In this document: in pieces, positions 37,458-60,905 of the stretch
Layout of the letters: every line of letters begins with the position of its first letter
Numbering within the stretch: position 1 is the first letter of the stretch
IMG/VR virus record: IMGVR_UViG_2849231242_000001
Length of the DNA stretch: 64,000 nt
From: a virus
Strand: one strand, 5' to 3'
Translations under genes and position numbers: made by a program
The notes under the pieces: model-generated
The model's database searches: none
Told to the model about the DNA's origin: nothing
The model's input: the letters and a program-made list of their open reading frames with translations, nothing else

Positions 37458-37702
37458 TTCGCTTCCAAGCCCAGCAGGGCAAAGATTTCAGCGATCGACA
37501 GGCCGGAGCGAAAGTGCATGCGGATCATCATGCGCGATGTCACCTGCAGCTTGCCGTGACGAATCTTGCTGATGACAGCCGGCGCCACCTCCAAGGCGCG
37601 GCACAGGGCCGCATCGTTTTTCACGCCCATGCGTTCGCGGACGCAGTCGAGCAGTTGGTTAGCTCCGGTGGTGTCCGGCAGATCCTGTGATGTGGTGCTC
37701 AT
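37454..37702 (-). CDS. HTH DNA-binding protein (XRE/Cro-like fold)
   Basis: 82 aa. LLDCVRERMGVKNDAALCRALEVAPAVISKIRHGK helix-turn-helix. Confidence 0.5.
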   Translation of the reverse strand: MSTTSQDLPDTTGANQLLDCVRERMGVKNDAALCRALEVAPAVISKIRHGKLQVTSRMMIRMHFRSGLSIAEIFALLGLEAK

Positions 37703-38664
37703 GCTGTTCGTTCCTCCTCAGTGGTTGGTTTTGCTTCTCGTTTTACAGGTCCTGCTTTACCCGTCAGCGAGCGCAGCTGGGCGCGCACGTCATCGGGAAG
37801 TGTGCCGGCCGGTGGCAGTGCTTCGGCAGCAATCCCTACCCTGCTCATGCGCGGCGGCGCGGGCGGCACGCCGCCGTTGTCGATCGCCGCGTACAGTCGT
37901 TGCTCGAATGCATACATCGACTCGCCCACCAGCGGGGCCATGTTCAATTCCCGGCCCTTGGCCAGCTTCATTTCGTCCGTTGCACGCCAAGCCTGATCGC
38001 CCCGCTTGCTGCCGGACTTCGGGCCGCCTTCGTTACGGCACCAGTTGCGCCAGGTGCCATCCCAGTTGGTCTTGGCTCCCTTCTGTCCTCCGACACCGCT
38101 CCAGTGGTCGCGGAATTTTTCGCCCACTTCCCGGATGTACTCGACGCTCCAGTCCGGATACTTGGCCTGCGCCCATTCCCCCCATGACTTGGGAAGAACG
38201 AAGGTGGGGGGGAGGCGCGTAGCGCGGACTGCCTTCGCTGCGATGTTCCCCTCTGCGCGCCCACCATCTGCGTTTACATCTTTGTTTACATCTGTATCTA
38301 GTGATTTGCCACGTTTGGCAGTTCCATTTGCCAATTTCGGCAAATGCAGTTGCCCCGGAAGGAATTTGCATTCGTCAAAAAAGGCATACCATTTCGTGCG
38401 GTCGACAGCACGCTCGTTGTAGTTGCCTGTCACCAATACTTCCAGCTTGGTGAGCTTTTCCAGGGAGTACCGAATCTGCTTGTTTGTCAGGTACGGGAAC
38501 AGCTGCGAGAACGCCTCCACGCTGTTGTAGGTCCAGGTCCGGTCGTCACGGAAATTGACGCCGTTCGCCTTATTTTTCGCAATCCAGAATTGGAAGTTGC
38601 CGATCAAAATAGCCTCGATAACCCCGTAGCTTGAAGCATGTTCAATATCGAAACTATGATTCAT
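37699..38664 (-). CDS. Phage replication initiation/organiser protein (O-like)
   Basis: 321 aa. N-terminal winged-helix-like region. Early-operon position downstream of cro and the CII-like gene. Confidence 0.5.
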   Translation of the reverse strand: MNHSFDIEHASSYGVIEAILIGNFQFWIAKNKANGVNFRDDRTWTYNSVEAFSQLFPYLTNKQIRYSLEKLTKLEVLVTGNYNERAVDRTKWYAFFDECKFLPGQLHLPKLANGTAKRGKSLDTDVNKDVNADGGRAEGNIAAKAVRATRLPPTFVLPKSWGEWAQAKYPDWSVEYIREVGEKFRDHWSGVGGQKGAKTNWDGTWRNWCRNEGGPKSGSKRGDQAWRATDEMKLAKGRELNMAPLVGESMYAFEQRLYAAIDNGGVPPAPPRMSRVGIAAEALPPAGTLPDDVRAQLRSLTGKAGPVKREAKPTTEEERTA

Positions 38665-40140: not shown

Positions 40141-40446
40141 TTATTTGTACTGCTCTGGCTGTAGGTAGACGATCGCTTCCGCCGGCACCACCTTCATCCC
40201 CGCACATGCCATCGCCAAACACACCAGCGACAGGGTTCCGCTCGACTTGAGGCGCGATATGGTGGATTCATGAACCCCCATCATTTCGGCGATGGCCACC
40301 GCTGTTGTTTTGTCGATGGCCTGCAAGAAATGGGCGTTATTCTTGCGTGACTGCTCCAGAATTTCCGGCGATACTGAGCACGAGTTGAAGTTGAGCACCC
40401 GGCTGAATGCCAAATCGGCGTCGCTTGTTTCGCTTTGGTCTATCAT
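40141..40446 (-). CDS. HTH transcriptional regulator (CII-like position)
   Basis: 101 aa. IAEMMGVHESTISRLK HTH. Second gene of the rightward early operon. Confidence 0.5.
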   Translation of the reverse strand: MIDQSETSDADLAFSRVLNFNSCSVSPEILEQSRKNNAHFLQAIDKTTAVAIAEMMGVHESTISRLKSSGTLSLVCLAMACAGMKVVPAEAIVYLQPEQYK

Positions 40447-40485: not shown

Positions 40486-40743
40486 TTAAGCGAGTTTCAA
40501 ATCGCCGAAAATGGCCGGGTTGAGTTGAGCCAGCGTGACGCGCCCATCGAGTACCTTCACGATGTCTTTGCAGCGCTTCGGCGTGGCAAAACCTTGCTCT
40601 ACCCATCGCTGCACACACTGCGGCGTGCAGCCCAACAATCGCGCCAGCGCAGACTGCCCCTTGTCTAACGCCGACACGCCTTTTTCCTGGGCCGACTGCG
40701 CCTTGGCCAGTCTTGCCGCTGTTGCTATCCCAGATTCAAGCAT
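40486..40743 (-). CDS. cro: Cro-like repressor
   Basis: Start at MLESG. HTH SALARLLGCTPQCVQRWVEQGF. Divergent from the CI-like gene across an operator array. Confidence 0.65.
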   Translation of the reverse strand: MLESGIATAARLAKAQSAQEKGVSALDKGQSALARLLGCTPQCVQRWVEQGFATPKRCKDIVKVLDGRVTLAQLNPAIFGDLKLA

Positions 40744-40798
40744 TGTTTCCCTATGTAAATGAGTTAACCGAAATATTACAGTTATACCCATGAAACTG

Positions 40799-40841
40799 CA
40801 ACGAATTGTTGTAGCGTAAACTGACAACTATCGTTGTAAAC
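40799..40841. promoter_or_regulatory. Operator array between cro and cI (GTTGT/ACAAC half-sites)
   Basis: CAACgaattGTTG (40799-40811), GTTGTagcgtaaactgACAAC (40808-40828), GTTGTAAAC (40833-40841). Confidence 0.55.
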
Positions 40842-40849
40842 TATCCATA

Positions 40850-41263
40850 ATGACTAAGTATGAAAATGACTCGACCGTCGAGTTCTCGAAAAGACTTGCA
40901 GCTGCCTTAGAACGCAAGAACGGAGGTAATCAATCCGATCTCGCGCGCAATGTCAATTGCACACCGCAAGCAGTAAATAAATGGCTCGCAGGCAGTCAGT
41001 TTCCCCGCGACCGTATCCTGCGTGTTGTCGCCGATTACTTAGGGGTAACGCCAGAGTATTTGAAATTTGGCACCCCCAATGAACCACCGCCGCCGCCTCC
41101 ACCCAAGTTTTTTCTTATGTACCTTCAAGCCGATGAGGCTGAGTTCATCACTCATGTCCGCGAACTGAGTGAAACGGGCCGCAAGCAATTGCGCGCCTCT
41201 CTGATAAATGCCGAGAAACTACCCCCGGAAGCCCTGCCACACAAGGCCAATGGCACGCACTAA
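40850..41263 (+). CDS. cI: CI-like repressor (HTH_XRE; no S24 peptidase domain)
   Basis: 137 aa. HTH QSDLARNVNCTPQAVNKWLAG. Poly-Pro linker PPPPPPP. Short C-terminal dimerisation-like domain. Confidence 0.65.
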   Translation: MTKYENDSTVEFSKRLAAALERKNGGNQSDLARNVNCTPQAVNKWLAGSQFPRDRILRVVADYLGVTPEYLKFGTPNEPPPPPPPKFFLMYLQADEAEFITHVRELSETGRKQLRASLINAEKLPPEALPHKANGTH

Positions 41264-41265
41264 CG

Positions 41266-41499
41266 CTAGACCAGGCGCAGCTTTGGCGTTGCGCTCTTCG
41301 CAATAATTTCCCGTACTGGCGCCGCCGGCGCCGCCTCGTCGCCAGCGTTCAGCGTCAATGCCACGTTGACCAGGTACAACCTCGATGACAGTGATGCTTT
41401 GTCAAAAGCACCAAGCAGAGTAGCCCGTGCTTCTGCAACTGTCATACGAGAAATATCGATGGCACCGTGGCTGTGCCCATTCAAAATACTGCGCCGCAT
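41266..41499 (-). CDS. Hypothetical small protein convergent with cI
   Basis: 77-aa ORF. Confidence 0.3.
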   Translation of the reverse strand: MRRSILNGHSHGAIDISRMTVAEARATLLGAFDKASLSSRLYLVNVALTLNAGDEAAPAAPVREIIAKSATPKLRLV

Positions 41500-41724
41500 A
41501 GTCTTGCCTTTTCTACAAAATAGTTAATACAAAGAAACGGGCGCTTACTTTGCACTATCCAATCGTTTCCATCAAGACCTATTCCAAGTCGTTGTAAAAC
41601 CTGATCCGCAGAGCGTGATTATTGGTGAGAATTGCAATATTTTATTGCTAAACGCTTGCGTCATTGTAATTTTTAATTGTAGTATCCTGCTGGCAATAAA
41701 TTGCTCTGGCCACCTCTTTTTGAG

Positions 41725-41827
41725 GGCCAACAGTCAAGGCAGCTCACCACGTAGTGGCGGTCAGGCATTCCGCTTGCCGCTTTACTTGCCAGGGAAGCAT
41801 GGGGACGTTGCCTTGACTGTTGGTGCC
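41725..41827. ncRNA. Long-range inverted repeat (15-17 bp arms) enclosing the perfect palindrome CCACGTAGTGG; candidate structured regulatory RNA or site
   Basis: GGCCAACAGTCAAGGCAGC (41725-41743) versus GTTGCCTTGACTGTTGGTGCC (41807-41827). AT-rich surroundings. No convincing ORF. Confidence 0.3.
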
Positions 41828-41953
41828 ATGGGCCGCGCCCAGCCGCCGGCCAGGCGCTCAACACTTTAGGCAAAGCCAATGACCGTACAGCATTTCCCAT
41901 CCCCCGACGCGGGGAAACCCACCCTACCCAGCGCTCAACCAATGGAACCCGCA

Positions 41954-42067
41954 ATGAAACGCCTCTACACCCAGGTGCTGCTTGTCGTCGGCATCGCCCT
42001 CGTCGGCCTGAATATCATGTATCCGTACCCAGCACCTCTAGGCTGCCGCAGCGATATGCTGGCTTAG
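41954..42067 (+). CDS. Small hydrophobic peptide (37 aa, one TM)
   Basis: MKRLYTQVLLVVGIALVGLNIMYPYPAPLGCRSDMLA. Could start earlier (41879 or 41942). Confidence 0.3.
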   Translation: MKRLYTQVLLVVGIALVGLNIMYPYPAPLGCRSDMLA

Positions 42068-42070
42068 CGC

Positions 42071-42274
42071 ATGCCAGCAACAGCAAGCGTGCGCGGCAAA
42101 GTGCCGCGCACCAGGCCACGCACCCCGCCTGACAACCCCGCCCTTAATGCCCTCCTGGAACTGCGCGAGCTGGTCGCCAGTGAAGGCTACGCCATGACGG
42201 CGCTCACGCTGGCCGGCTACCGCCGCGACTTGCTCGCCACCTTCGACAACTACCTCAAAGACTGCACTTCATGA
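42071..42274 (+). CDS. Hypothetical protein (67 aa)
   Basis: ORF with coding GC3. Confidence 0.35.
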   Translation: MPATASVRGKVPRTRPRTPPDNPALNALLELRELVASEGYAMTALTLAGYRRDLLATFDNYLKDCTS

Positions 42275-42813
42275 CAAATCTCATCGAACTGCTGCGGGCC
42301 GGCCACTTGCCGCCTGCAACCGAAATCATCCGTCACCTGGAGCAGGCAGAAGAGCGCAACCGGCTCCAACAGTCCATCATGGATAAGGCGGCCTCCATCC
42401 TTTTGGAAGGGACCGTGTCGGAAGACGGCATTGACCCGGTACAGGCCGATGCCTGCATCGACCAGATCCGCGGCATATTTAACGACATTGGACAAACGAC
42501 GGTAGAGCACAACCTGGGGCTGGTATATGCCAAGGTGGCAGAAATCGCCGGCATCCCGCCGGAAGATGAATTCAATATTTTGGCCGTGCTCGACACATTG
42601 CAGGCAGGGCCAGGAACGGACGAGGCGCCGGCAAGTCGGGAGGATTCGTCTCGCCTGGATCCGCTTGAGCACGCCGGCGGCTTTATGCGCGGCACGGATG
42701 GTGGCGCGCCTGCGTTTCGGATTTTCGGCCGTGATACCTGGCATGACTCTCTTCGCTCCGCGATAGATAAGGGGCAACAGGCCAACGCAGTTGCCACAGT
42801 GGGCGCACAGTAA
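42271..42813 (+). CDS. Hypothetical protein (180 aa)
   Basis: ORF overlapping the upstream gene by ATGA. Confidence 0.4.
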   Translation: MTNLIELLRAGHLPPATEIIRHLEQAEERNRLQQSIMDKAASILLEGTVSEDGIDPVQADACIDQIRGIFNDIGQTTVEHNLGLVYAKVAEIAGIPPEDEFNILAVLDTLQAGPGTDEAPASREDSSRLDPLEHAGGFMRGTDGGAPAFRIFGRDTWHDSLRSAIDKGQQANAVATVGAQ

Positions 42814-43099
42814 AAAACCTTGGCTCACTCTTCCTTATTCGCAAGCCTGCTTTTGCGTTTAACCCCCTTCCCTGCTTGCGGGAAACCAGGGGAACACTTG
42901 CTCTATGGGGGCAAGTTCTTCCACTCCAGGTGGGCATGCCAACCTCGTCAAGGCCGGCTGGACGAATCATCCGAAGGCGCCCCAATTCCACAACATTGAC
43001 CCAAAATTGTAAGTTTTGCCTAATTTTCTGGAATTTCAGTTGCAATTAGGCACTGCGACGAATAATATGCTGAAACAATAGTTTTTTTGAAAGCGGAAA

Positions 43100-44185
43100 A
43101 TGCCCCCTGAGAATGTTTTGCGCCCCTTCCACGGGGTTCGCCTGAAGCTGGCCAAGGAATTCATTGGCTTCATCGGCCCAGACAAAAAATTCCGCGAGCT
43201 TGCAAAAGAAGCAATCGGCGATCTCATTCCGGTGGGCTCGACCAGTGCTCACAAAACATATCACGCCCTTGAGATTCGACGCATCCGTCAAAAAATCTTA
43301 CCGGGCCTGGTAGCAGAAGCGTTCCGAGAGCTGCCGCCAATTATCAACTTCCGCATGTCAAAGGGCGGGACGGGTAAAACGACAGTCAGCGCTAACGTAG
43401 CCACTTGCTTTGCCCAGTGCGGCTACAAGACTTTGGTGATCGACGGCGATCCCCAAGGGTCCTTGAGCATGCAACTAGGATTTGATATCAATCGTTCGCT
43501 GACCCATATTGGCACCCTGTTAGAGCGCCTATCTAAAGCTCAGCCGACACAAATCCATGACGCGGTCGTTCCTGTATATTCCGGCGGAATGCTTGACCTT
43601 ATCCCAGCTGACATTACGCTTGCAAATGATTCATGGATGATTTCGACCATGGGCCGCGAAGCACTTTTACAGCGACTAATGGAGCAAGAATCGGGATTCT
43701 TTAAACAGTATGAAGTGATCATTATTGACTCCGCCCCGGGCGCCTCCTTGCTGACGACTACCTTTATGGCAGCGAGCAATATTATTACGGCCGTGGTCAT
43801 TCCAGAAGCTCAGTCAGTGCTTGCGCTCGAAGTGCTTGAAGGCAACATTGAGGAAATTAATCAATCGATCCGCCGCACCGGGCCCAAACTGGGCCTTCAT
43901 ATTATTGCAAATCGATACCGCCAAACTTATAAATCACACAATGATGCACTTGAGAAATTGGGCTCAAAATATGCCCCCTATCTCAACGACACCATTATCC
44001 GCGACTTTGCTGGGTTTTTACGTGAAACGGATATGAGCGACTTCTCTAAGTCAGCCCCAGTCCTTGAAAAAGAACCAAACAGCGTAGGCGCCCGTGACAT
44101 TATCGATGTGACAAAAGCGCTGATCAAACTCTACAATGTAAAAATGAGTGCAGCCCCATCGGCGGAATTGGCAGCAGCAGCATGA
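43100..44185 (+). CDS. parA: Type Ia partition ATPase ParA (SopA-like, with N-terminal regulatory extension)
   Basis: LPPIINFRMSKGGTGKTTVSANVA...LVIDGDPQGSLSM closely parallels F SopA FPPVIGVAAHKGGVYKTSVSVHLA...LLVEGNDPQGTASM. Deviant Walker A. Confidence 0.85.
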   Translation: MPPENVLRPFHGVRLKLAKEFIGFIGPDKKFRELAKEAIGDLIPVGSTSAHKTYHALEIRRIRQKILPGLVAEAFRELPPIINFRMSKGGTGKTTVSANVATCFAQCGYKTLVIDGDPQGSLSMQLGFDINRSLTHIGTLLERLSKAQPTQIHDAVVPVYSGGMLDLIPADITLANDSWMISTMGREALLQRLMEQESGFFKQYEVIIIDSAPGASLLTTTFMAASNIITAVVIPEAQSVLALEVLEGNIEEINQSIRRTGPKLGLHIIANRYRQTYKSHNDALEKLGSKYAPYLNDTIIRDFAGFLRETDMSDFSKSAPVLEKEPNSVGARDIIDVTKALIKLYNVKMSAAPSAELAAAA

Positions 44186-45282
44186 CAGGCAACACCCCCC
44201 TGACTCCAGATACGGCGCAAGATGCTGAAAAACCACCTGCAAGCGCGCGCAGGCAGGTCAAGTTTTCCGGCCTGGTCAATGCCGGCGTGATATCCCCCAC
44301 GCCGGACATCAATAGCCCCCCTCATTTTGCTAACACATTATCTGGGGCGGCCGCGCCCCAACAGTTGCAGCCATTAGCGGATAGGCCTGTGGCTGCTTTA
44401 ACCATTGACGCTACCCAGAAGGCAGAATGGGAGCTTGTTGAAAATGAAAGCGTTCGCCTGATCGATGTTGACATGGTTGATGACAGCCCATTTCAACCAG
44501 AGGATGAAGCTCGCGATCGCTATAACAGCGAAGGAATTGATGACCTGGCGCATACGATGGCCAGTGCAGGTCAAAAAGAAAACATTATTGTTCGAGTGGT
44601 CAATGGTCGCTTTGAACTGATCGCGGGCCATCGTCGCATCCGTGCCGCTCGCTCACTTGGCTGGGCGAAAATTAAAGCACTCGTTGTCGGAATGAAAGAC
44701 GACCTTGAAGCCGAAAAATCGGTAATGGTCCACAACGAGGGTACTCAAGGCAACAGTGATTATGCCAAAGCTAAACTTTATCAGCGCGCAAAACAGAGAG
44801 GTTTCGCCAAGACCCAAGCCGATATCGCCCATATGTTTGCGACGAAACAGGCGTCAGTTTCTAAACGGCTTGCGATGCTTGAGTTACCAACTCCAATCCT
44901 AAATTTACTTGAATCGCAATTCGACCTTTTCGGCATGAATGCATCTGCTGCGATTCATGAATTGTTAGCTGAGCTCCCATCGGAGACGGATTTAATTACC
45001 AAGGCGGTTGCTCGCATCAAGCACGAAAACGCGAAAGAGAACTCAATTCGCGGGTGGGTTTTGCAGATGGTTCAGTCACGCACCAAACTACTATCTGGTA
45101 AGCCAGGCAAAACCAAGCCCAAGGTAATTACAGACCCAGCAGGGCGCCAGCTGTACACAGCAAAACTTGAAGGCCGTGTTATTACCTTCCGCGTCAGTGC
45201 GGCAGAGCTGGACCCGAGCGTCACCCTCGATGCCATGGTCGAGTATTTCCAGGCCGCAGCAAAAGGAAAAAGCAAAGAATGA
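44182..45282 (+). CDS. parB: Partition protein ParB (SopB-like)
   Basis: ParB N-terminal motif ELIAGHRRIRAARSLGW. Downstream HTH. ATGA overlap with parA. Confidence 0.8.
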   Translation: MTGNTPLTPDTAQDAEKPPASARRQVKFSGLVNAGVISPTPDINSPPHFANTLSGAAAPQQLQPLADRPVAALTIDATQKAEWELVENESVRLIDVDMVDDSPFQPEDEARDRYNSEGIDDLAHTMASAGQKENIIVRVVNGRFELIAGHRRIRAARSLGWAKIKALVVGMKDDLEAEKSVMVHNEGTQGNSDYAKAKLYQRAKQRGFAKTQADIAHMFATKQASVSKRLAMLELPTPILNLLESQFDLFGMNASAAIHELLAELPSETDLITKAVARIKHENAKENSIRGWVLQMVQSRTKLLSGKPGKTKPKVITDPAGRQLYTAKLEGRVITFRVSAAELDPSVTLDAMVEYFQAAAKGKSKE

Positions 45283-45318
45283 AATACTTAAAATATCCAT
45301 TAAAATCAATGACTTATA

Positions 45319-45339
45319 AATTATTCTACTGGAATAATT
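45319..45339. promoter_or_regulatory. Candidate parS centromere palindrome
   Basis: AATTATTC-tactg-GAATAATT, perfect 8-bp arms, 37 nt after the parB stop. Confidence 0.45.
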
Positions 45340-45392
45340 CTCAGATGATTGAGTTTAAGGAGGCGCGGCTATGAAAACCTAGCCCCCTAATG

Positions 45393-45430
45393 AAAAAACC
45401 CCAGCTTGCAGGCCGGGGTTTTTTGCTTTT
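45393..45430 (+). terminator. Rho-independent terminator after the parAB operon
   Basis: CCCCAGC-ttgca-GGCCGGGG hairpin (45399-45418) followed by TTTTTTGCTTTTT. Confidence 0.6.
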
Positions 45431-45492
45431 TGGACTACGAATTTCGTACTTCAAGGTGACAAGGTGATGCCTGAGAACTTCATCTTATCCCC

Positions 45493-46503
45493 ATGTGGTA
45501 CGACCGTCAAACACTTTGTGGCATCTATGCCCATGTGGAGATACTTGTGCGCGCTCAAACCCTAGATGATGTTATTAAACCATACTTGCACCTCCCAACA
45601 GCCATTCAAACGGCCCTGGTCCGTGTTGAAACGCACCCTACTTTTCGCTCGATCACCAAAAGCACCCTGCTGGTACTGAAGGCGCTTGTGTCCCGCGCAT
45701 CGGCAACCAACGGCACGCGCATCATCCATGCACGCCTCGATCGACTGGCCGAGGAAGCGAACGTCAGCTACAAAACGGTGCAACGTGCACTGCGCCAGTT
45801 TCATGAATTCAAATGGGCCAGCCCTGCGAGTGAAGGTCGATCCGAATGGGGCGTGTTCGAGGCAAAGCGCTATCGCCTCTCCCCCGACTTGTGCGCCCTG
45901 GTGCATCTGCCGACCAAGGAAAAGACCGCCTCCGAACTGGAGCAAGAGACAGAATTGTCCGACGGTGCTATATACGTTGATCTTAGTTTGAAAAAAGATC
46001 TCCGGAAGATTTCGATTGAGAATCGAAACGGCGAACCCCCAAAGCTACCCGCTGCCGTTGAACACGTCCCAGGCGAAACAGGCATCAGCCCAACCGGCAT
46101 TTGCAAGCTGCTGGGCATTGCCCGCAAAGCCGGCTACCAGCTCGAACACGTCATTCTGGTTGCCAAGCCCTACCTGGCCAAGATCGGTACAGCCAGCCCG
46201 GGTCGAGCATTCCGCTACCTGCAGGCGATGCTGACGAATCCGAAGAAGGTTGATTACGCGGGTCGCGCTGCCCAGCTGGAGCGTGGTGACGAACCAGATC
46301 CAGCGAAGGCAATGCTCGCCATCGCCAAGCAGTGCCGCCACAAGAAATTCGTCCACGCTACCAAACCCGGCCTGCTGGTCCGCTTCTTCGATGGGGTGGC
46401 TGAGGTATCATGCGCCGGCCAGGTTGAAACGCTCGCAGGGCGCCAGTTGGAGGTGCTGTACGCGGACGTGGCCAAGGGCAAGTTGACGGAGGTAATCGAA
46501 TAA
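45493..46503 (+). CDS. rep: Plasmid/phage replication initiator (Rep, winged-helix)
   Basis: 336 aa. TKSTLLVLKALVSRA...SYKTVQRALRQF wHTH. Follows parAB, as in plasmid replicons. Confidence 0.55.
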   Translation: MWYDRQTLCGIYAHVEILVRAQTLDDVIKPYLHLPTAIQTALVRVETHPTFRSITKSTLLVLKALVSRASATNGTRIIHARLDRLAEEANVSYKTVQRALRQFHEFKWASPASEGRSEWGVFEAKRYRLSPDLCALVHLPTKEKTASELEQETELSDGAIYVDLSLKKDLRKISIENRNGEPPKLPAAVEHVPGETGISPTGICKLLGIARKAGYQLEHVILVAKPYLAKIGTASPGRAFRYLQAMLTNPKKVDYAGRAAQLERGDEPDPAKAMLAIAKQCRHKKFVHATKPGLLVRFFDGVAEVSCAGQVETLAGRQLEVLYADVAKGKLTEVIE

Positions 46504-46985
46504 TGGACCGCGAACGCCAGCTACATCAGCAAGGCTACTGGCGCTTCACGCCCGCCGGCATGGCCATCCCGGGACTGTTCGATGCGATCGACTGGAGCGC
46601 GCGTGAACAGCGCCGATTCTGGCAGTCGCACCAGGTGCGTTTTGCCCAAGTGCCCTTGCCGCTGCAAGCCGCCTTTCTGTTCGCCTACGAGGCAGAACAC
46701 CGGCACACGCCGATCACGAGCATGGAAGCGGCCTATGCGGCGCTGGTGCGCATTTCGGCATTCGGCTACGATACCGGCCCGGGCCTGGCAATCAAGGCAG
46801 CCATGGAAGCTGCCGGCGCCCAGTTGCAGCGCGAAGCGGCGACGGCAATGGAAGCGCGCCAGCGCGCATCGAGCGAAAGGAAGTGGCAGGCGGAACTGGC
46901 GAGCAAGCAGTTGCCGCGCGGGCCGGCGGCGAACCTGGCGCTGATACGCGCGGCGCTCAAGATGCCGGCAAGGGCACTATCGTGA
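46503..46985 (+). CDS. Hypothetical protein (160 aa)
   Basis: ORF, ATGA-coupled to rep. Confidence 0.4.
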   Translation: MDRERQLHQQGYWRFTPAGMAIPGLFDAIDWSAREQRRFWQSHQVRFAQVPLPLQAAFLFAYEAEHRHTPITSMEAAYAALVRISAFGYDTGPGLAIKAAMEAAGAQLQREAATAMEARQRASSERKWQAELASKQLPRGPAANLALIRAALKMPARALS

Positions 46986-48120
46986 TGGCGGCCGCAGTCT
47001 CGGCGTGCCGGGTGGCGTCTTCCTTGTGCAAGTAGCGCCCGGTCGTGCCGATGTTCGCATGGCGCCCGTTCAGTTGGACCGTCTTGAGCGGCACGCCACG
47101 GTCGAGCTGGTGCGTCAGCGATGAATGGCGCAGCCAGTGCGTCGAAGCCTGACCCAGCCGGTGCGCGACTTCATGCTGGCCGTGTTCGTTCGCCAGCTGC
47201 ACCGCGCGGCGCATGATGACCTTCATGGCGGCGGCCACGGCGTTGTGACTGGCGCGCCGCAGCGAACCGCGCGACGACAGTACCAGGGGGACAGTGTCGC
47301 CAGGCGCCGGCATGGCGGCCAGGCCATAAGCCAGCCGATAGCAACGGTACTCATCGAGCAACGCCGCCGGCACCGGCACCTTGCCGTGGCGGCGCCCTTT
47401 GCCCAGAACGTGCAGCCACCAGGCGCCGGCATCATCGCATCGCACGCTGCGCATGTCGGCGCCGGCCAGCTCGGACAAGCGCACGGCCGTGAGGTAAAAC
47501 GCCTGCACCAGGAAGCGCGCCCGCGCGCGGCGCAATGCCGCTGACGGCGTCGACGCTGGCATGTGCTCGGCGGCCAGCAGCATGAAGGCGATGGCCGCCG
47601 GCGGCAGGAAGCGCTCGATGGCTTCATTCGACACCACACGCATGCTGCCCAGCAGCTTGGCCGGGTTGGTTGGGAGATACTGCGCCGCGCGCGCCCAGCT
47701 GAATAAACCCTTGAGCACGGTCAGCGCCTGGACCTGCGACGCCGGCGACAGCGGACCGCAGAAAGGGCGCCAGCGCGGATCGCTGCGCGGATAGCGCTCG
47801 GCCCTGATCCAGTCGTCCGCCGGCGCCGGGTCGGCAAGAAAGGCGGCATAGGCGAGCAGGTCCTCGTAGGCCGTGGTGCGCAAACTCAGGCCGTGCGCAC
47901 GCAACCACAGCACGAAGCGCTCGGCTTCCTTGCGGGCGTTGCGCACGGTACGCGGGGAAAGGTTGGGGCGGCGCAGCCACAAGGCAACGATGCCATCATC
48001 GTCGGCCGCGCGCGTCAGGGCACCAGGGGGGAGGGCAGGGGGAGCTGGCTCCGATGTGACAAGGCGGGTTCCAGACTGGTCCTGCGACGTTGTCAGTTCG
48101 GTAGCCATAGCCCTCCCCAA
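46957..48120 (-). CDS. Second tyrosine recombinase (XerD-like; resolvase or integrase)
   Basis: 387 aa. N-terminal SAM-like domain. Catalytic HWLRHSSLTHQL and HANIGTTGRYLH. Confidence 0.8.
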   Translation of the reverse strand: MGRAMATELTTSQDQSGTRLVTSEPAPPALPPGALTRAADDDGIVALWLRRPNLSPRTVRNARKEAERFVLWLRAHGLSLRTTAYEDLLAYAAFLADPAPADDWIRAERYPRSDPRWRPFCGPLSPASQVQALTVLKGLFSWARAAQYLPTNPAKLLGSMRVVSNEAIERFLPPAAIAFMLLAAEHMPASTPSAALRRARARFLVQAFYLTAVRLSELAGADMRSVRCDDAGAWWLHVLGKGRRHGKVPVPAALLDEYRCYRLAYGLAAMPAPGDTVPLVLSSRGSLRRASHNAVAAAMKVIMRRAVQLANEHGQHEVAHRLGQASTHWLRHSSLTHQLDRGVPLKTVQLNGRHANIGTTGRYLHKEDATRHAETAAAITIVPLPAS

Positions 48121-48130
48121 GGTAGGTCAG

Positions 48131-49081
48131 TTAGGTTTTAGCATCGCCCTGGGCGAGTACCTTGGCCAACTGGGCGCGCACGTCGGCCAGGGCAGTACGA
48201 TCGCTGAGCAGCATGCCGCGCAGTTCGGCCGCCTCTTCCGTCGCCTTGCGCTCATTGGCGCGCGCGTCTGCCGACAGCTTGCGCGACGACTCCAGTTCAC
48301 GCGAGGCACTTTCCAGCCGGGCCTGACAGCCTTGCACCGACAAGTTGGCGTTGGCCAGCTCGCGCGTGGCGCCGCTCAATTGCCGCTCCAGCTCAACGAT
48401 GCGGGCGAGGGCGGTTTTCTCGCGCGCCTCGATGTCGCCGGCGCGCGTGTCAGCGGCATCGAGGCGCGCGGTCAATACCGCTGCCTGCTGTTCGGCCGCC
48501 ACCCGGCCGGCGTGCTCGCTGGCCGCCTCATTGCGCAGCGCCACCAGTTCGGCCTCGATGCGCGGCACCACTTCCAACTGGTGACGCGCCTTCGTCAACT
48601 CGGCACGCACCGCCTCGGCCGCGCGGCGCTCGTTGTCCAATTGCGTCTGCGTCGTCAGCGACTCGGCTTCGACCTGGAGTATGCGCCCCTGCAAGATGGC
48701 CAGTTCATTACGCGCGGCGTGCAGCGCTTCTGCATTCGCATCGAGCTCCTTCGCCTGGGCCTCGTTCTCCGTGGCCAGGTCGGCGGCTTCCTGCAATTGG
48801 TCCACCAGCTCGGCCTCGATCGTGGCTGTACTAGCGGCCAGTTCTTGCGCGAGGAATTCGAGGATGGCGCGCTGCAATGGCGCCGGCAGGGTGAGGGAGG
48901 CGTTGACCGCATGCTCTTCACCCGTTTTCCAGGTCTGCAACAATTTATTGATGGTGCCCATGCTGCCGATGTTGCCCAGCCGTTCACGCACGGCGCGCGA
49001 GGTGGGATTGGCACCGGCCGCTTTCATGGCGTCGGCGATGGCGGCGACTTGTACATAGGTGATGCTCGATTCCCGGCCCAT
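48131..49081 (-). CDS. kfrA: KfrA-like DNA-binding protein (N-terminal HTH plus long alpha-helical coiled coil)
   Basis: ITYVQVAAIADAMKAAGANPTSRAVRERLGNIGSMGTINKLLQTWK N-domain. Roughly 250 aa of Ala/Glu/Arg/Leu heptads. Confidence 0.7.
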   Translation of the reverse strand: MGRESSITYVQVAAIADAMKAAGANPTSRAVRERLGNIGSMGTINKLLQTWKTGEEHAVNASLTLPAPLQRAILEFLAQELAASTATIEAELVDQLQEAADLATENEAQAKELDANAEALHAARNELAILQGRILQVEAESLTTQTQLDNERRAAEAVRAELTKARHQLEVVPRIEAELVALRNEAASEHAGRVAAEQQAAVLTARLDAADTRAGDIEAREKTALARIVELERQLSGATRELANANLSVQGCQARLESASRELESSRKLSADARANERKATEEAAELRGMLLSDRTALADVRAQLAKVLAQGDAKT

Positions 49082-49100
49082 ACCATTCCTTGAAGGTGAT

Positions 49101-49140
49101 TGTTACGTTATGTTATGTTATTTTTTGTTATGTTACGTTA
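49101..49140. repeat. Four tandem 10-bp iteron-like repeats (TGTTAYGTTA) upstream of kfrA
   Basis: TGTTACGTTA TGTTATGTTA TTTTTTGTTA TGTTACGTTA, one per helical turn. Plausibly the KfrA operator and/or an origin element. Confidence 0.6.
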
Positions 49141-49477
49141 TGGAATGGTGCGGGGCAAGGGCGAAGGGAAGTTTCCATGCGGTCAATTTTACGCAGTTTT
49201 CCGGCCCGATGGTAAACAGGTGATTAGGAGAGTAATCACCCGTTAAGCCAAATTCGGCCGCCAGATGGCCGGCCGATATGCTGTGAGCAGGGGAGGGCAC
49301 AGCGTCCACGTACATCAGGCCTCGCCGCCTGGCACGCGTCGCCCGCCGCCTCAACTAGCCGCGCGTGGCGCCAACGCATCGCCCTGACTATGCGCCAGCA
49401 CTATTAAATTGCACATTTTTTGAACATGTTGTCGATTAGGGCTACAATGGACATCAGTACACAGGAGGACAACCACT

Positions 49478-49696
49478 ATGAATACCGCTACTTTGCGCCG
49501 CCCAACCGGCGACGAACTGGAACGCGAAATTGAAGATATCGAATCGCGTATCCATGACGAGAACATCCGCACCACAATTCAAGAACGCATGGCGCGCGCG
49601 CGTCAGCCAGGCGCCGCCCGCGTATCGCACGGCGAAGCCTTCGCGCAATCGCGTGCCCGCCTGATGGACATGCTGACTGCGCCTGTCGATGGCTGA
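49478..49696 (+). CDS. Putative antitoxin (addiction-module component)
   Basis: 72 aa, acidic/basic helical. Overlaps the toxin gene by 8 nt. Preceded by the inverted repeat GGTGATTA-N6-TAATCACC (49219-49240). Confidence 0.5.
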   Translation: MNTATLRRPTGDELEREIEDIESRIHDENIRTTIQERMARARQPGAARVSHGEAFAQSRARLMDMLTAPVDG

Positions 49697-49997
49697 TTGG
49701 GCCATCGAATGGCTCGATGAGGCTGTCGAAGACAAAAACAAAATTGTCTTCTACATCGCTCGGCGCGACCCCGTTGCCGCGTTCGGCATCGATGAGGAAT
49801 TCGACAAGCAAGTCGGCGCGCTGGCGAGCTTTCCCGGCATGGGAAGAGTCGGCCGCATTCCTGGCAGCCGTGAGCTGTTGATGAATCCTTTGCATTACAT
49901 CGTCGTCTACGAGCTCAATACGGTCGATGAGATCGTGACCATTTTGCATATCTACGACGACAGGCAATCCGGACCACGCTTCATCCGCATTCGTTAA
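49689..49997 (+). CDS. ParE/RelE-family toxin
   Basis: 102 aa. KIVFYIARRDPVAA...LLMNPLHYIVVYELNTVDEIVTILHIYDDRQ is a typical ParE/RelE fold sequence. Confidence 0.65.
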   Translation: MADWAIEWLDEAVEDKNKIVFYIARRDPVAAFGIDEEFDKQVGALASFPGMGRVGRIPGSRELLMNPLHYIVVYELNTVDEIVTILHIYDDRQSGPRFIRIR

Positions 49998-50180
49998 TGC
50001 CAGCGGCGCGCACGCCGCACTATTTATGATCCTCTTCAGATCGCTGCACGCAGCCGCCGTGCAGCGATCTGCTGTGCCCGCACCCATCTAGCAGGCAAGC
50101 CCTTTCGCCAGCCTGACTCCCACCTTCCTACCCAAGACGCCCCCATGGCGGGTTTATCGCGCATTTTTACGCGCAAAGCA

Positions 50181-50220
50181 TTACAACTTTGTATTGCACA
50201 TTACAATAAATTGTTACAAT
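50181..50220 (+). promoter_or_regulatory. Copy 1 of a duplicated ~40-bp promoter/operator element
   Basis: TTACAACTTTGTATTGCACATTACAATAAATTGTTACAAT. 38/40 identical to the element at 52761-52800. Contains three TTACAA(T) hexamers. Confidence 0.5.
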
Positions 50221-50255
50221 CGGCTCCCTATTATTGCGCGCAAGCCGGAGCCACC

Positions 50256-52154
50256 ATGTCCCTCGAAGAAGACGTCAGTAAACTGACACAAGCCACCACG
50301 GAGCTAATCAAAGCCGTCAACGTTCAAAAATCCTACCTCGACGCGGCGGCAAAAGCGGCCATCGCCGGCGTCACCGTCCAGGGCGCGATCGTGCCGACAC
50401 CCGGGAAATCGCCCGTCGGGAATGCAAATGGTTTATTTGACCCAGCCTGGCTTGATCCGAGCTTGCCGCTTGCCTCACCTCTTTCGGTGGGAGCAGTCAA
50501 CAAGTATGGATACACCTTCATGCAAGGTGGCCAAGGCCAGCGTCTGTTCAAGCTCGCAACGATGCTGGGGAATGGCCTCAGTACATATGCATCCTTACGT
50601 ATCGACGCCATGATCGGTAATTGGCTGGGCTCGGAACTTACAGCCATGACTATTGTTCTGGGTAGCCGTAACGATGCTACTGGTTTGTCGGTAGACTGGA
50701 ACACTACTCGTTTTGTGGCGAGCAACGTCCGTTTTGTTGCTTACAAGGAAGCCAATGGTGAAATTTCAGTGTATCTCTTCTTTTTAGCGGGATCTTATGC
50801 ACAGGCATCATTACAAATGATGGGCATGCAGACCGTGACTTACGCTGCACCAGCAGCTGTCAGTTCTGTTACAGGTACGCTAATCTGGGATAGCTCGGTT
50901 GGGCCAGAAGTTAGCAGCGCCTACCGTTCGCCGCGCTCCCGTGGCACGGGCCCTGCTTCAGTTCCAGGGGTACTGAATGGCACCAGTTTTGATAGTCTTG
51001 TCGAAGTGCGTGCGCAGGACGGTATCACTTCTTCTGTGTCGTACCTTGCAGGTGCGCCAAAAGCGGACTCAATGGCAGCGAAACAAGAGGCAGAAGCCCT
51101 GCGTATTGGGGTGTCGGGAAATACGGGAATATCTTATGCTGGTTTCTTCCAAGGCTTGGTATCCGTGGCTGAAAATAACAGCCCATTCGCATTGGGGTAC
51201 AAACTGTCGTTTAAGGCACGAGATGTAGGTTCTGGCAACTTCACCCCGACACTGTTCTCCATTACCGGCAATGGCCAAGTCTACATGCCTGTTATCAAAG
51301 TCGGGACAAATGACACCTCGGCAATCAATGTCATAGCCGTAGCCGGTGTTGAAGGAACCGATATATTAACGATTGTCGACGCTACCGGCTATCGCAAGTG
51401 TAATGGCGAATGGGGCAATCTCACAAATGCCGCTCAGATTGTGAAGGCGAACTCAGTTACCGGCCGCAGTAGCAATAACCGGGGCACTGTCAACACGATG
51501 GGTAACGATTATGCCGAGTACATTTTCAAAAGCCCATCATGCGGGAACGTCGCGCCAGGTCAAATTGTCGGCATCAGCGCGGACAATAAAATCACCGATC
51601 AATGGGCTGGCACCGTATTGTTTTCGATTAAATCAACTGCCCCATCATTTGTCGGCGGCGATTCTTGGGCCGACAATGTAGGACGCCGTCCAGATCCCCT
51701 AGCTGGCGCAGCACCCATCCAGCCCATGCGCCGTGAAACAACAACCGCGCAGCAGCCTGTTCCAGGCACCAATCCCCCGGAATACGAGGATGTGGTCACC
51801 GAGGCTGGCGACAGCGATGACGAATGGGCCGCCAAGCAGGCGGTCTACGCAGATACTCTAGCGGCCTACACTGCGGCTGTGCAGCAGGATGCTGACGCCA
51901 TGGCGGCCTTCGATGCTTTGCTGGAAGCGGAGCGCGAGAAGGTAGATCGCATCGCCATCGCGGGCCGGGTACCGGTCAATGTGCTGGACGCCCAGCCTGG
52001 CGATTACATCGTGCCGGTGCAAGACGGCGCAGGCATCAAGGGCATTCCTGTGCACGAGGATAATCTCACCATGAAACAGTACCTGAGTGCAGTCGGGCGC
52101 GTGATCTCGATCGAGCCGGACGGCCGGGCCTACGTGATGGTCAAGGTCGTGTAG
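50256..52154 (+). CDS. Large fiber-like/adhesin-like protein (633 aa) of unknown function
   Basis: Start at MSLEEDVSKLTQATTELIKAVN. Beta-rich Ser/Gly/Thr/Asn composition. Acidic C-terminal region. Confidence 0.5.
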   Translation: MSLEEDVSKLTQATTELIKAVNVQKSYLDAAAKAAIAGVTVQGAIVPTPGKSPVGNANGLFDPAWLDPSLPLASPLSVGAVNKYGYTFMQGGQGQRLFKLATMLGNGLSTYASLRIDAMIGNWLGSELTAMTIVLGSRNDATGLSVDWNTTRFVASNVRFVAYKEANGEISVYLFFLAGSYAQASLQMMGMQTVTYAAPAAVSSVTGTLIWDSSVGPEVSSAYRSPRSRGTGPASVPGVLNGTSFDSLVEVRAQDGITSSVSYLAGAPKADSMAAKQEAEALRIGVSGNTGISYAGFFQGLVSVAENNSPFALGYKLSFKARDVGSGNFTPTLFSITGNGQVYMPVIKVGTNDTSAINVIAVAGVEGTDILTIVDATGYRKCNGEWGNLTNAAQIVKANSVTGRSSNNRGTVNTMGNDYAEYIFKSPSCGNVAPGQIVGISADNKITDQWAGTVLFSIKSTAPSFVGGDSWADNVGRRPDPLAGAAPIQPMRRETTTAQQPVPGTNPPEYEDVVTEAGDSDDEWAAKQAVYADTLAAYTAAVQQDADAMAAFDALLEAEREKVDRIAIAGRVPVNVLDAQPGDYIVPVQDGAGIKGIPVHEDNLTMKQYLSAVGRVISIEPDGRAYVMVKVV

Positions 52155-52234: not shown

Positions 52235-52594
52235 TTAAGCCGCGCCGCCTAGTTCCAGTATTTTCAGGCTTTCGTCTTCACCGGAATGCGCCAAGCTGGC
52301 GCCAGTAATCAAGACGAACATCTGCAAGGTGCTAAAGTGAGCCGGTGATGGAACAGTTAATGGCGAAGGAATCCGGCCCAGATCATGATACGCATTCACT
52401 AGCGCTTGAATGGACGGCCTGGCAGCGGCTGTTCCGCTAAGGGCAATGACAGAAGCAATTCCACCGACATAATTGTCAAATTCATTTTCAAAACGCTCGA
52501 CGTAAGATTCTGCCGAAGTTCGCTTCAAATGTTCGGAAAGCGTAGTGCATTCCTCGTGCACGCAATGGTGCCTGGTGCCATTTTCGATATTCAT
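52235..52594 (-). CDS. Hypothetical protein (119 aa)
   Basis: ORF convergent with the 633-aa gene. Confidence 0.35.
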   Translation of the reverse strand: MNIENGTRHHCVHEECTTLSEHLKRTSAESYVERFENEFDNYVGGIASVIALSGTAAARPSIQALVNAYHDLGRIPSPLTVPSPAHFSTLQMFVLITGASLAHSGEDESLKILELGGAA

Positions 52595-52760
52595 CGCAGT
52601 CTTTCAAAAAATAGAAAAAACAGGGACGCAGATCGTATTGGAATGAACACGCTCTACGTGTGAGGTGGTGCCTATCATACCGCCTAATCGAAGGCTGACG
52701 CCCATATTGGCCATGCGGGTCACTCGCCTGCAAACGCATCCCTGCGCGCATGCATGCGGG

Positions 52761-52800
52761 CTACAATTTTGTATTGCACATTACAATTTATTGTTACAAT
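52761..52800 (+). promoter_or_regulatory. Copy 2 of the duplicated ~40-bp promoter/operator element
   Basis: CTACAATTTTGTATTGCACATTACAATTTATTGTTACAAT, 12 nt upstream of the ATG at 52812. Confidence 0.5.
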
Positions 52801-52811
52801 TCTGGTTCACA

Positions 52812-53045
52812 ATGGATTGCACAATACAAATCATGATCCCCATCTACATCGGCCTGCTGCATGCGGGCCTGGAAGTTATGCGTTCGCAGCAGGCTGCGGC
52901 TATGCTGCAAGCCAAGTATCGCCGCCAGGCGCAAGAACTTGCAGAGATGATGGCGCGCGCCAGCGGCGATGTGATCGACGTCGACGCGCGCTTCATCGAT
53001 GAGCCGTTGGCATTGCCGCTGGACGACCAGCTGGGCCAGCCATGA
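52812..53045 (+). CDS. Hypothetical small protein (77 aa)
   Basis: MDCTIQIMIPIYIGLLHAGLEV.... First gene after repeat copy 2. ATGA overlap with the SprT-like gene. Confidence 0.4.
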   Translation: MDCTIQIMIPIYIGLLHAGLEVMRSQQAAAMLQAKYRRQAQELAEMMARASGDVIDVDARFIDEPLALPLDDQLGQP

Positions 53046-53773: not shown

Positions 53774-53877
53774 CAGGGGCAGGAGGGACCGTCAGGGGCG
53801 CGCCAAATAATCTAAGTTTGGCGCCAAGCGCTCCTATACTCGGCCGCGCACCACCTCCCTCCACTCTGAAAGCCATT

Positions 53878-54420: not shown

Positions 54421-54515
54421 TCGCGCGCACCATGCTGGGCCCGCCTGCCATCCATGTATTGCACCTCCAGGCGCCACGCAGTCGCCTGCCCCAACCTACC
54501 CACCAGGAGAACACC

Positions 54516-54701
54516 ATGATCGATGTCAAAAAGCTGATGAAAGAAGCCACCAAGGAAGTGGGCGAAGAACGCCGTACCAAGGCCAAGAATGCGCTGGTGG
54601 CGGCACTGCGCCGGCGCGAAAGCGCGCTGCAGGTCGTGCGTAACTGCGAGGCGGAAATTACGGATCTGCAAGCGAGCATCGAAGATGGCTCGTTTAACTG
54701 A
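54516..54701 (+). CDS. Hypothetical small helical protein (61 aa)
   Basis: AGGAGA SD. MIDVKKLMKEATKEVGEERR... Confidence 0.4.
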   Translation: MIDVKKLMKEATKEVGEERRTKAKNALVAALRRRESALQVVRNCEAEITDLQASIEDGSFN

Positions 54702-55914: not shown

Positions 55915-55929
55915 TTCACACAGGACACC

Positions 55930-60856: not shown

Positions 60857-60868
60857 CCTTATATAAAA

Positions 60869-60896: not shown

Positions 60897-60905
60897 ATTC
60901 AGGGC

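Follow-up and report, generated by a model that had tools for sequence, protein, structure and literature searches.

A circular Janthinobacterium phage genome with a plasmid-type maintenance region, very probably a phage-plasmid

Does a temperate phage that encodes an integrase as well as partition and replication functions of the plasmid type reside in its lysogens as a chromosomal prophage, or as a replicon of its own? This question is raised by a 64,000-bp stretch of viral DNA (IMG/VR record IMGVR_UViG_2849231242_000001), referred to in the following as the window, whose coordinates are used throughout. An initial annotation of positions 40486-49997 had proposed that the maintenance genes found there make the element a candidate phage-plasmid, and this proposal is supported by the closure of the genome into a circle, by permuted contig ends, by the lack of host flanks, and by the existence of a circular relative in Massilia. 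The window very probably represents most of a circular genome of 70,735 bp that belongs to a temperate, podovirus-like phage of Janthinobacterium and persists in lysogeny as a low-copy plasmid and not as an integrated prophage. Related loci and contigs are designated by L numbers where they need to be told apart.

Circular topology and a closed relative in Massilia

When independent assemblies are joined end to start, the window and 6,735 bp that lie outside of it form a circle of 70,735 bp, 90% of which is covered by the window; this is the separate circular contig that the initial annotation had called for. Contig SRR12364938_96 (L006; 70,765 bp) is 100% identical to positions 52428-64000 of the window and, after 6,735 further bases, becomes identical to positions 1-121, and contig SRR12364930_43 (L003) crosses the break point of L006 at 100% identity. 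The Logan contigs run 30 bp over the 70,735 bp, an excess that is expected as the k-1 overlap of a circular contig if k = 31 is presumed for the Logan assemblies. Both window ends fall inside a single phage gene on the minus strand that codes for a PLxRFG polyvalent protein of 5,495 aa. It starts at 6658 (N-terminal part at 1-6658; the minus strand has an open frame at 2-6865), runs on across the 6,735 bp not included in the window (positions 11574-18308 of L006), and stops at 60906 (C-terminal part at 60906-64000); the reconstructed open frame has 5,564 codons, and the methionine at residue 70 gives the length of 5,495 aa.

In six contigs of 70.3-71.0 kb, which stem from different samples, the circle is cut at about 12.6, 40.2, 46.0, 52.4, 54.5 and 62.1 kb, and hence there is no common end such as would be left by an att junction, a cos site or a telomere; a linear plasmid prophage of the N15 type is ruled out by these permuted ends. 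Likewise, the position of the ParA gene differs among five contigs that measure 70.3-71.0 kb and come from separate samples. Of the public assemblies, 41 indexed blocks contain the exact ParA sequence, the longest contig measuring 50-200 kb in 25 of these blocks and more in none. The clusters formed at 90% identity by the Rep, ParA and integrase (Int) proteins comprise about 30 contigs with a maximum length of 72,549 bp, and include a 70,830-bp contig present in two NCBI genomes of unclassified Janthinobacterium. Host flanks are absent from all of these roughly 30 contigs with the same ParA, Int or Rep, and the attL/attR junctions with host genes, a search for which had been advised in the initial annotation, were thus not encountered in the lineage. 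The window itself contains no host DNA and no tRNA gene that would mark an att site. Taken together, the closure of the circle, the six break points, a contig size of at most 72.5 kb, and a closed circular relative place the element, on computational grounds, on a replicon apart from the chromosome.

This relative was found by a comparative search against a plasmid collection. It is the 'plasmid unnamed' of Massilia violaceinigra B2 (NZ_CP024609.1; L007), a circular replicon of 87,120 bp from a closed genome, typed as non-mobilizable, in which the gene order of the element is preserved. Amino acid identities determined by tblastn amount to 67% for TerS, 74% for TerL, 59% for the portal protein, 67% for the capsid protein, 79-80% for the giant protein, 63% for Int and 54% for the CI-like repressor on the phage side, to 50% for ParA, 56% for ParB, 63% for Rep, 66% for the recombinase and 57% for KfrA on the plasmid side, and to 47% for an H-NS-like protein. 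The shared gene order and proteins indicate that the phage and plasmid halves are conserved together across genera. Counterparts of the sites described below (parS-like, antisense promoter, repeats and 13-6-13) are likewise present in the Massilia plasmid. It differs from the element in that it belongs to another genus, is 16 kb larger, carries two-component sensors, RHS toxins and insertion sequence (IS) elements, and is annotated merely as a plasmid with hypothetical proteins. Its nucleotide identity to the element is too low for megablast except in rep: when the plasmid block was searched against the plasmid collection, the single match (73% identity over 900 bp) lay in rep of NZ_CP024609.1, and the corresponding search of the phage collection detected no nucleotide similarity to any record. 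Scans with ParA yielded no match among the GTDB species representatives and no relative in IMG/VR. The same architecture recurs on a 75.6-kb metagenomic contig (L017).

The phage half encodes packaging, capsid, tail and lysis functions in a podovirus-type module on the minus strand (6705-26108; PHROG and Pfam matches). This module comprises TerS, TerL, a portal protein, a scaffold-like protein, a major capsid protein of the N4-gp56 type, further structural proteins, a GH19 endolysin, an Rz spanin, an internal virion protein and a tail fibre, and its proteins are 25-74% identical to those of the Massilia plasmid (tblastn). The assignment to the podoviruses rests on the finding that the element contains no detectable tail tube, sheath or tape-measure gene, and on best matches that are podoviruses; TerL and the capsid protein share only 42-43% amino acid identity with their best matches among isolated phages. 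A lysogeny switch is present at 40-41 kb. The gene for the CI-like repressor (40850-41263, plus strand; HTH_3 1.3e-7 and a weak match to DicA/RstR repressors) diverges from that for a Cro-like protein with a YdaS-family helix-turn-helix (HTH) domain (40486-40743, minus strand; YdaS_toxin 4.7e-11), which is called as 85 aa in every related contig and is the first gene of the leftward lytic operon. The second gene of this operon (40141-40446, minus strand) codes for a CII-like HTH protein that matches Phage_CII at 7e-4, below the Pfam cutoff, and is 52% identical to its Massilia counterpart; further along lies a phage-type replication initiator of the O/DnaD-like kind (37699-38664, minus strand; PHROG 11233 8e-48). 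A YbcO nuclease is also encoded rightward of the virion module. The packaging, head, tail-fibre, lysis and switch genes are all intact open frames.

The partition, replication and resolution region

The ParA, ParB, recombinase, KfrA and ParE proteins listed in the initial annotation, together with the CI/Cro switch, were recovered at their positions with support from protein families of Pfam, PHROGs and NCBIfam. The block had been described as lying on the strand opposite to the early operon; this holds for parA, parB and rep, which share the plus strand with the CI-like repressor gene, and does not hold for the recombinase and kfrA genes, which are located on the minus strand. For this region, the biochemical roles of the proteins, the antisense RNA and the two cis-acting sites are inferred, and so is the production of virions by the phage half.

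The partition ATPase ParA (43100-44185, plus strand; AAA_31 3.4e-28, CbiA 3e-18, PHROG 164 ParA-like 2.7e-34) consists of 361 aa, with an N-terminal extension of about 80 aa in which no HTH was detected and an ATPase core that begins near residue 80. The parB gene (44182-45282, plus strand) overlaps parA by 4 nucleotides and encodes a 366-aa protein of the large HTH type with a ParB_N domain (5.6e-14) and a weak HTH_ParB match (TIGR00180 8.4e-25; RepB TIGR03454 1e-12). Both proteins exceed the Pfam cutoffs, and ParB also exceeds that of TIGR00180; a Walker-type ParA with an N-terminal extension paired with a large HTH ParB is the combination that characterizes type Ia systems. The particular resemblance to SopA of the F plasmid that had been proposed did not hold. 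ParA reaches 37.6 bits on the SopA model NF010259 (cutoff 725) and slightly more, 65 bits, on the repABC-type RepA model TIGR03453, both far below cutoff, and ParB scores 18.8 bits on the closest SopB-type plasmid ParB model (cutoff 274); membership in the SopA/SopB equivalogs was consequently rejected. Upstream of parA, a 180-aa protein without family match (42271-42813, plus strand) is kept at the same position in L007, L011 and L017.

Just downstream of parB lies a candidate for the centromere parS (45300-45339). It consists of a perfect integration host factor (IHF) consensus, AATCAATGACTTA, at 45304-45316 (five matches in 64 kb versus 0.9 expected), followed at 45319-45339 by the palindrome AATTATTC-TACTG-GAATAATT. 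The palindrome, which the initial annotation had also noticed, is unique in the window with none expected by chance. An IHF box with a palindrome is also found downstream of parB in L001, L007, L009, L011, L017 and L018; the IHF box is kept in every relative and the sequence of the palindrome varies by lineage, with Massilia (L007) possessing two palindrome copies, one of them with a compensatory change. The parS of phage P1 includes an IHF site, and the arrangement seen here fits a parS of this kind. No other part of the module is as AT-rich as this segment (GC 0.30), which may therefore belong to a vegetative origin (oriV) instead of being a centromere.

The open reading frame of the Rep candidate (45493-46503, plus strand) encodes a winged-helix protein whose sole family match is HTH_36 (5e-4). 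Translation probably starts at the GTG codon at 45547, because the preceding stretch is disordered in the structural model and absent from most homologues; the resulting 318 aa correspond to the length of several cluster members, and the first 18 codons of the listed frame enclose the antisense promoter discussed below. A function as replication initiator can be inferred from the genetic context. The protein belongs to an uncharacterised family found mainly in Oxalobacteraceae: named homologues come from Janthinobacterium, Massilia, Undibacterium, unclassified Oxalobacteraceae and two metagenome bins labelled Bdellovibrionales, many of them sit on contigs of 59-88 kb, and a genome scan with a Rep profile found five loci, all in Oxalobacteraceae and on contigs of at most 46 kb. 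The Rep candidate always follows parA-parB, including on a 131-kb contig in whose flanks no phage genes are seen, and the trio is also present on a 73.9-kb contig with plasmid-like flanks; parA-parB-rep can accordingly be regarded as a portable replicon. A search for an AT-rich origin within the rep gene, where repC has one, gave no convincing candidate, the only feature being a mild dip at 45920-46039 (GC 0.46). The start of a downstream gene (46503-46985, plus strand) overlaps the rep stop codon; its 160-aa product has no family match, and tblastn found it in no relatives beyond the 94-95% identical variants.

In the spacer between parB and rep, a GC-rich hairpin placed between an A-run and a T-run (45390-45432) forms a bidirectional intrinsic terminator that is present in all 10 related loci, and 6 of the 13 base pairs of its stem show compensatory changes; a simple terminator scan had missed this stem-loop, which falls outside the rules of the scan. 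On the minus strand, a sigma-70-type promoter (TTGACG-17-TAAGAT) at 45482-45510 precedes this hairpin with its T-run in such a way that an antisense (counter-transcribed) RNA of 80-90 nucleotides, here about 83 (45393-45475), is predicted opposite to the rep leader. The combination of promoter (TTGACN, 17-18 nucleotides, TAAGAT/TAGGAT/TATGAT) and terminator at a distance of 80-90 nucleotides recurs in all 10 of the 10 loci, across a span of Rep identity from 38 to 100%; in L009 its length was read by eye, as the script had stopped at an earlier T-run (46 nucleotides). Across these 10 loci the 5' stretch of the predicted RNA is conserved and its middle stem-loop varies. No Rfam family corresponds to it, the parB-rep spacer giving terminator-like matches below threshold, and at the gathering threshold no Rfam match exists in the whole window. 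By its layout, the predicted RNA resembles the counter-transcribed RNAs that control plasmid copy number. In Oxalobacteraceae bacterium GrIS 1.11, three contigs (L012, L013 and L014) carry three different parA-parB-rep-recombinase cassettes, which differ in the palindrome, the antisense-RNA stem-loop, and the arms or spacers of the recombinase site; such differences would be expected if these elements determine incompatibility.

Convergent with rep is the gene for a XerC/D-like tyrosine recombinase, a candidate multimer resolvase (46957-48120, minus strand, called as 383 aa at 46957-48108; Phage_integrase 9e-13, XerC TIGR02224 2e-20 and below cutoff). It can be aligned to XerD (1a0p) across the catalytic residues R, K, HxxR, H and Y, the alignment taking in LRVSEL/VRLSEL, GKG, HxLRH, GH and the final Y. 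Orthologues with 53-78% identity adjoin rep in L007, L008, L011-L014 and L017. A candidate lox/dif-like core site, AACAGGTGATTA-GGAGAG-TAATCACCCGTT, with inverted arms of 12 bp and a spacer of 6 bp, is positioned at 49213-49242. One such 12/13-6-12/13 site is found 130-500 bp upstream of the recombinase gene or its operon in each of the eight lineages with an orthologue (the window group L001-L004, L007, L008, L011, L012, L013, L014 and L017), and it is absent from all three loci that lack one (L009, L018 and L019). Its arms co-vary symmetrically and seven different spacers occur. This architecture is that of a lox/dif-type core and hence supports a role in dimer resolution, and the recombinase presumably acts on the site at 49213-49242.

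The kfrA gene (48131-49081, minus strand) is located upstream of the recombinase gene on the same strand. Its product is a KfrA-like DNA-binding coiled-coil protein (KfrA_N 1.3e-17 at residues 8-122, with a weak SMC coiled-coil match at residues 79-309) that is conserved with 56-57% identity in L007, L008 and L011; it is not universal in the family, being missing in L017 and L012. At 49101-49142, 20-60 bp upstream of the kfrA start, the sequence TGTTAYGTTA is directly repeated four times (equivalent to eight YGTTA pentamers), and these four copies, all at 49101-49140, are its only occurrences in the entire 70,735 bp. The four 10-bp repeats reported in the initial annotation are therefore real and unique, and it is their designation as iterons that had to be abandoned. 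The relatives with KfrA (L007, L008 and L011) have TGATACGATA-type repeats at the same place, and L002 retains its repeats after an insertion, with 386 bp between kfrA and the repeats compared with 88 bp in the window; the Rep-bearing relatives without KfrA (L017 and L012) have no such repeats. As they occur only where KfrA is present and do not track Rep, the repeats are probably the KfrA operator. A separate cassette of Rep, recombinase, KfrA, repeats and 13-6-13 site was observed at 9884-13220 of L008 (Janthinobacterium sp. CG23_2, FAOS01000002.1; 152,974 bp); it has no adjacent parAB, its neighbours are IS, resolvase and HD-domain genes, and it may stem, by degradation or recombination, from such a module and now be part of a larger replicon.

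The region ends with a presumed toxin-antitoxin pair. The ParE/RelE-fold toxin (49689-49997, plus strand; ParE_toxin 1.5e-11, PHROG 2455 1.9e-13) was confirmed, and the 72-aa protein encoded directly upstream (49478-49696, plus strand) matches no antitoxin family or any other and is a putative antitoxin on account of its size and the 8-nucleotide overlap of its gene with parE. Variants L001 and L004, which are 94-95% identical, lack the pair; its presence or absence marks a variable hotspot between kfrA and SprT (49083-52154), to which the longer stretch between kfrA and the repeats of L002 and the length differences of the fibre-like gene also belong. The pair is accessory cargo and not a core maintenance function.

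The element encodes a second tyrosine recombinase, a lambda-type integrase (34297-35364, minus strand; PHROG 1 3.9e-42). Downstream of int, the non-coding segment 33899-34296 resembles an attP site, as it contains the densest cluster of GTTGCRC/GYGYAAC repeats in the window (six in one 450-bp bin versus a mean of 0.29) and an IHF consensus at 34087-34099 with repeats on both of its sides, a layout kept in L021 and in Massilia (L007). All sampled copies are in the unrecombined form. In a sibling lineage (L021; Int 83% identical; 72.6-kb contig) of which 24 contigs were read, genes of the element lie on both sides of int at each of the four places displayed. Integrases with at least 58% identity reside mostly on contigs of 65-80 kb, those with about 55% identity on chromosomes of Janthinobacterium, Duganella and Massilia. 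The int-attP module looks functional, and occasional integration seems possible.

From these features, a mechanism for the plasmid state can be proposed. The CI-like repressor would silence the leftward lytic operon with the genes for the Cro-like and CII-like proteins, the phage replication initiator and further proteins, and it would be transcribed in the same direction as the repABC-like cassette parA-parB-rep. Rep would start plasmid replication, and the conserved RNA of about 83 nucleotides that opposes the rep leader would probably set copy number and incompatibility. ParA and ParB would partition the copies through the centromere made up of the IHF site and palindrome just after parB, and the XerC/D-like recombinase would resolve multimers at the 12-6-12 core site upstream of its own operon. 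KfrA, produced from the recombinase operon, would bind to the 10-bp direct repeats in its own promoter; in some variants only, the ParE pair would add post-segregational killing, and the second, lambda-type integrase with its attP-like region may permit integration in some hosts.

Relationship to known replicons and alternative readings

With its temperate phage genome, partition and replication functions and existence as a separate replicon, the element resembles the phage-plasmids of the P1, N15, SSU5 and F116 communities, from whose N15 type it differs by being circular and not linear. Phage-plasmids commonly measure 50-100 kb (Pfeifer et al. 2021, PMC7969092), a range into which the element falls. 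We regard it as a previously undescribed member of this known class that is not surprising in kind and that, at the sequence level, belongs neither to P1 nor to the repABC replicons. Phage-plasmids are common, and their curated groups stem mostly from enterobacteria, Vibrio, Acinetobacter, Bacillus and mycobacteria. In the portions of the phage-plasmid texts and supplements that were open to searching, Oxalobacteraceae are absent as hosts; the literature accessible in the same way contains no description of NZ_CP024609 or of Janthinobacterium/Massilia phage-plasmids, and supplements of large screens may list NZ_CP024609.

The likeness to repABC replicons concerns organization. A partition ATPase (parA, 43100), a ParB protein (parB, 44182) and a presumed initiator (rep, 45547) are encoded in this order on the plus strand, the same order on one strand is found in 10 related loci, and ParA and ParB score best among the plasmid partition models on the RepA and RepB types, though below cutoff. 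A predicted small antisense RNA gene between the ParB and initiator genes and an adjoining palindromic centromere candidate add to this resemblance. Rep, in contrast, gave no match to the RepC family (PF03428/PF11800), and PF03428 matches, weak ones with a best E value of 7.6e-6, were obtained for 4 of 50 remote Rep relatives. Moreover, a strong bidirectional terminator separates parB from rep, which makes a single operon doubtful, and repABC replicons are those of Alphaproteobacteria, whereas here the host is betaproteobacterial and the cassette is embedded in a phage.

P1, with its ParAB-parS system that includes an IHF site, its Cre-loxP recombination and its Phd-Doc addiction module, offers parallels in the type Ia partition, in the centromere candidate with IHF consensus, in a tyrosine recombinase whose candidate core site for dimer resolution has inverted repeats, and in a toxin-antitoxin pair. 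No sequence relationship was detected, however, and P1 is a myovirus, whereas the element is podovirus-like, has a Rep that is not RepA-like and no iterons that could be found, carries a dispensable toxin-antitoxin pair of the ParE type, and possesses an extra int-attP module. Phage F116 and its relatives (H66, LKA5, phiC725A) are temperate podoviruses of about 65 kb. F116 has been reported to be extrachromosomal in lysogens, and phiC725A both integrated and free (PMC7969092, PMC5217972); F116 is without recognisable partition or plasmid replication genes (PMC7969092), in contrast to the full maintenance set of the element. Similarity to F116-like phages was detected only in the C-terminus of the giant protein, the last 968 aa of which are 50% identical to Pseudomonas phages of this group and 80% identical to the Massilia plasmid. 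Membership of the virion and packaging genes in the F116-like group (Hollowayvirus) was rejected, as the top listed matches of TerL and the capsid protein are other phages with at most 43% identity; among the listed best capsid matches there is no F116-like phage, and the only one from Pseudomonas is phage Rollin. KfrA shares with that of the IncP-1 plasmid RK2 the N-terminal KfrA_N domain followed by a long coiled coil, the proximity to the replication region and the repeats in its own promoter; it differs in that it is co-transcribed with a tyrosine recombinase and located on a phage.

How firmly can a plasmid state be preferred over integration? Several results weigh against it and have to be set beside the evidence for a separate circle. 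A circular assembly by itself could equally arise from packaged or replicating phage DNA, and phages with headful packaging also assemble as circles. Rep has no significant match among curated initiator families and solved initiator folds, so that of the Rep initiator proposed in the initial annotation the winged-helix frame stands and the functional label is not established by homology or fold; neither iterons nor DnaA boxes were found, and the stretch from the terminator to the start codon shows no detectable sense-strand rep promoter. The int-attP module is conserved, and the lineage may therefore not be strictly extrachromosomal. An ordinary integrating prophage, whose circles would be induced, excised or packaged (permuted, terminally redundant) DNA and whose par/rep genes would be accessory, accords with this module and with the related integrases on the chromosomes of Janthinobacterium, Duganella and Massilia. 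It is nevertheless very unlikely. No host junction exists in about 30 contigs or, for the sibling lineage, in the four places displayed, mixed integrated and free forms would break assemblies at the att site and the six break points differ, the element forms a replicon of its own in two isolate genomes and in the closed Massilia genome, and the module for partition, replication, resolution and KfrA is conserved across genera with 50-66% amino acid identity. The initial annotation had also argued from the internal position of the integrase; int is indeed flanked by element genes, and the argument is weak since every gene is internal on a circle.

A plasmid that contains a defective or domesticated phage and forms no infectious particles is an improbable alternative. 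The phage is known here from its genes alone, its TerL and capsid proteins are at most 43% identical to those of isolated phages, IMG/VR had no relative of its ParA, and IS elements and RHS cargo are present in its Massilia relative; the packaging, head, tail-fibre, lysis and switch frames are intact, however, with 25-80% amino acid identity between genera, and near-identical copies with arbitrary break points occur in many samples. That a prophage merely adjoins a separate integrated plasmid-like island, the scenario by which the initial annotation would have been refuted, is scarcely credible. The drop in GC content to about 0.50 across parAB from about 0.60 elsewhere and the occurrence of the parAB-rep trio in non-phage contexts suggest a mosaic origin; yet phage genes border the block on both sides (at 40-41 kb those of the switch, at 50-64 kb those for the fibre-like protein, SprT, the methylase and the giant virion protein), the whole closes as one circle without host DNA and in an order kept in Massilia, and the 6,735 bp outside the window are the middle of one open reading frame.

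Maintenance as a low-copy plasmid is thus the reading that we prefer. A more far-reaching proposal, which we offer tentatively, is that the element, together with related ones from Janthinobacterium, Massilia and other Oxalobacteraceae, belongs to an undescribed family of dual-mode temperate podoviruses that retain two routes to lysogeny, both fully conserved: a repABC-like replicon with a new initiator family under the control of an antisense RNA, and an intact lambda-type int-attP module; if true, the same phage could choose the plasmid or the integrated prophage state according to its host. The element is a well-resolved example from Betaproteobacteria of soil and freshwater, in which the maintenance region can be read almost whole by comparison, from partition, candidate centromere and candidate copy-control RNA to new initiator family, candidate resolution site and probable KfrA operator. 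Its parAB-RNA-rep cassette is a candidate for shuttle vectors in Janthinobacterium and Massilia, for which few genetic tools exist, and, as it has both a plasmid replicon and a conserved int-attP module, the element provides a testable case of the choice between episomal and integrated lysogeny.

Giant gene, cargo and neighbouring genes

The Pfam matches on record for the giant protein are FtsK_gamma, InPase, Eco57I (weak), WH_1, DUF8437, Helicase_dom and LPD37; its relatives measure 5,555 aa in Massilia and 6,288 aa in L017, the latter with an ART-PolyVal domain. Five open reading frames of 268-522 aa on the plus strand at 35-6346 were rejected as genes, as they have no family match and run antisense to the giant gene; they are artefacts of GC-rich antisense sequence. 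An exact look-up of the 331-aa frame at 59598-60593 returned nothing, and its true start probably differs.

With regard to the capsid, a protein of the N4-gp56 type that is 46% identical to that of the element is encoded at 24552-25499 of a 54,159-bp plasmid of Endozoicomonas gorgoniicola (NZ_CP103299.1), which is probably another unrecognised phage-plasmid from a different bacterial order. Within the tail region of the element lies an acetyltransferase gene (9554-10012, minus strand; PHROG 1249), and between the polymerase described next and int a gene for an SPFH/Band_7 protein (31527-32468, minus strand); both may serve in lysogenic conversion or exclusion. An umuDC-like pair occupies 26910-29002 (plus strand) and includes a Y-family polymerase (27656-29002; IMS 5e-36, IMS_C, DUF4113); in L021, the sibling lineage, the gene called directly before that of the polymerase codes for a UmuD-like Peptidase_S24. 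Such pairs are typical SOS-mutagenesis cargo of plasmids and phages.

To the right of the plasmid block follow a fibre-like gene, SprT, an H-NS-like protein and a C5 methyltransferase. The first of these (PHROG 34132) is called as 632 aa in L003 and as 622 or 218 aa in near-identical variants. The H-NS-like protein (55600-55914, plus strand) is kept in L007, L009, L017 and L018 and may silence genes of the element itself or of the host. The large C5 cytosine DNA methyltransferase (57397-59496, plus strand) is called as 673 aa in L006; L017 has instead a Dam-like MethyltransfD12 and a 722-aa methylase in the early operon.

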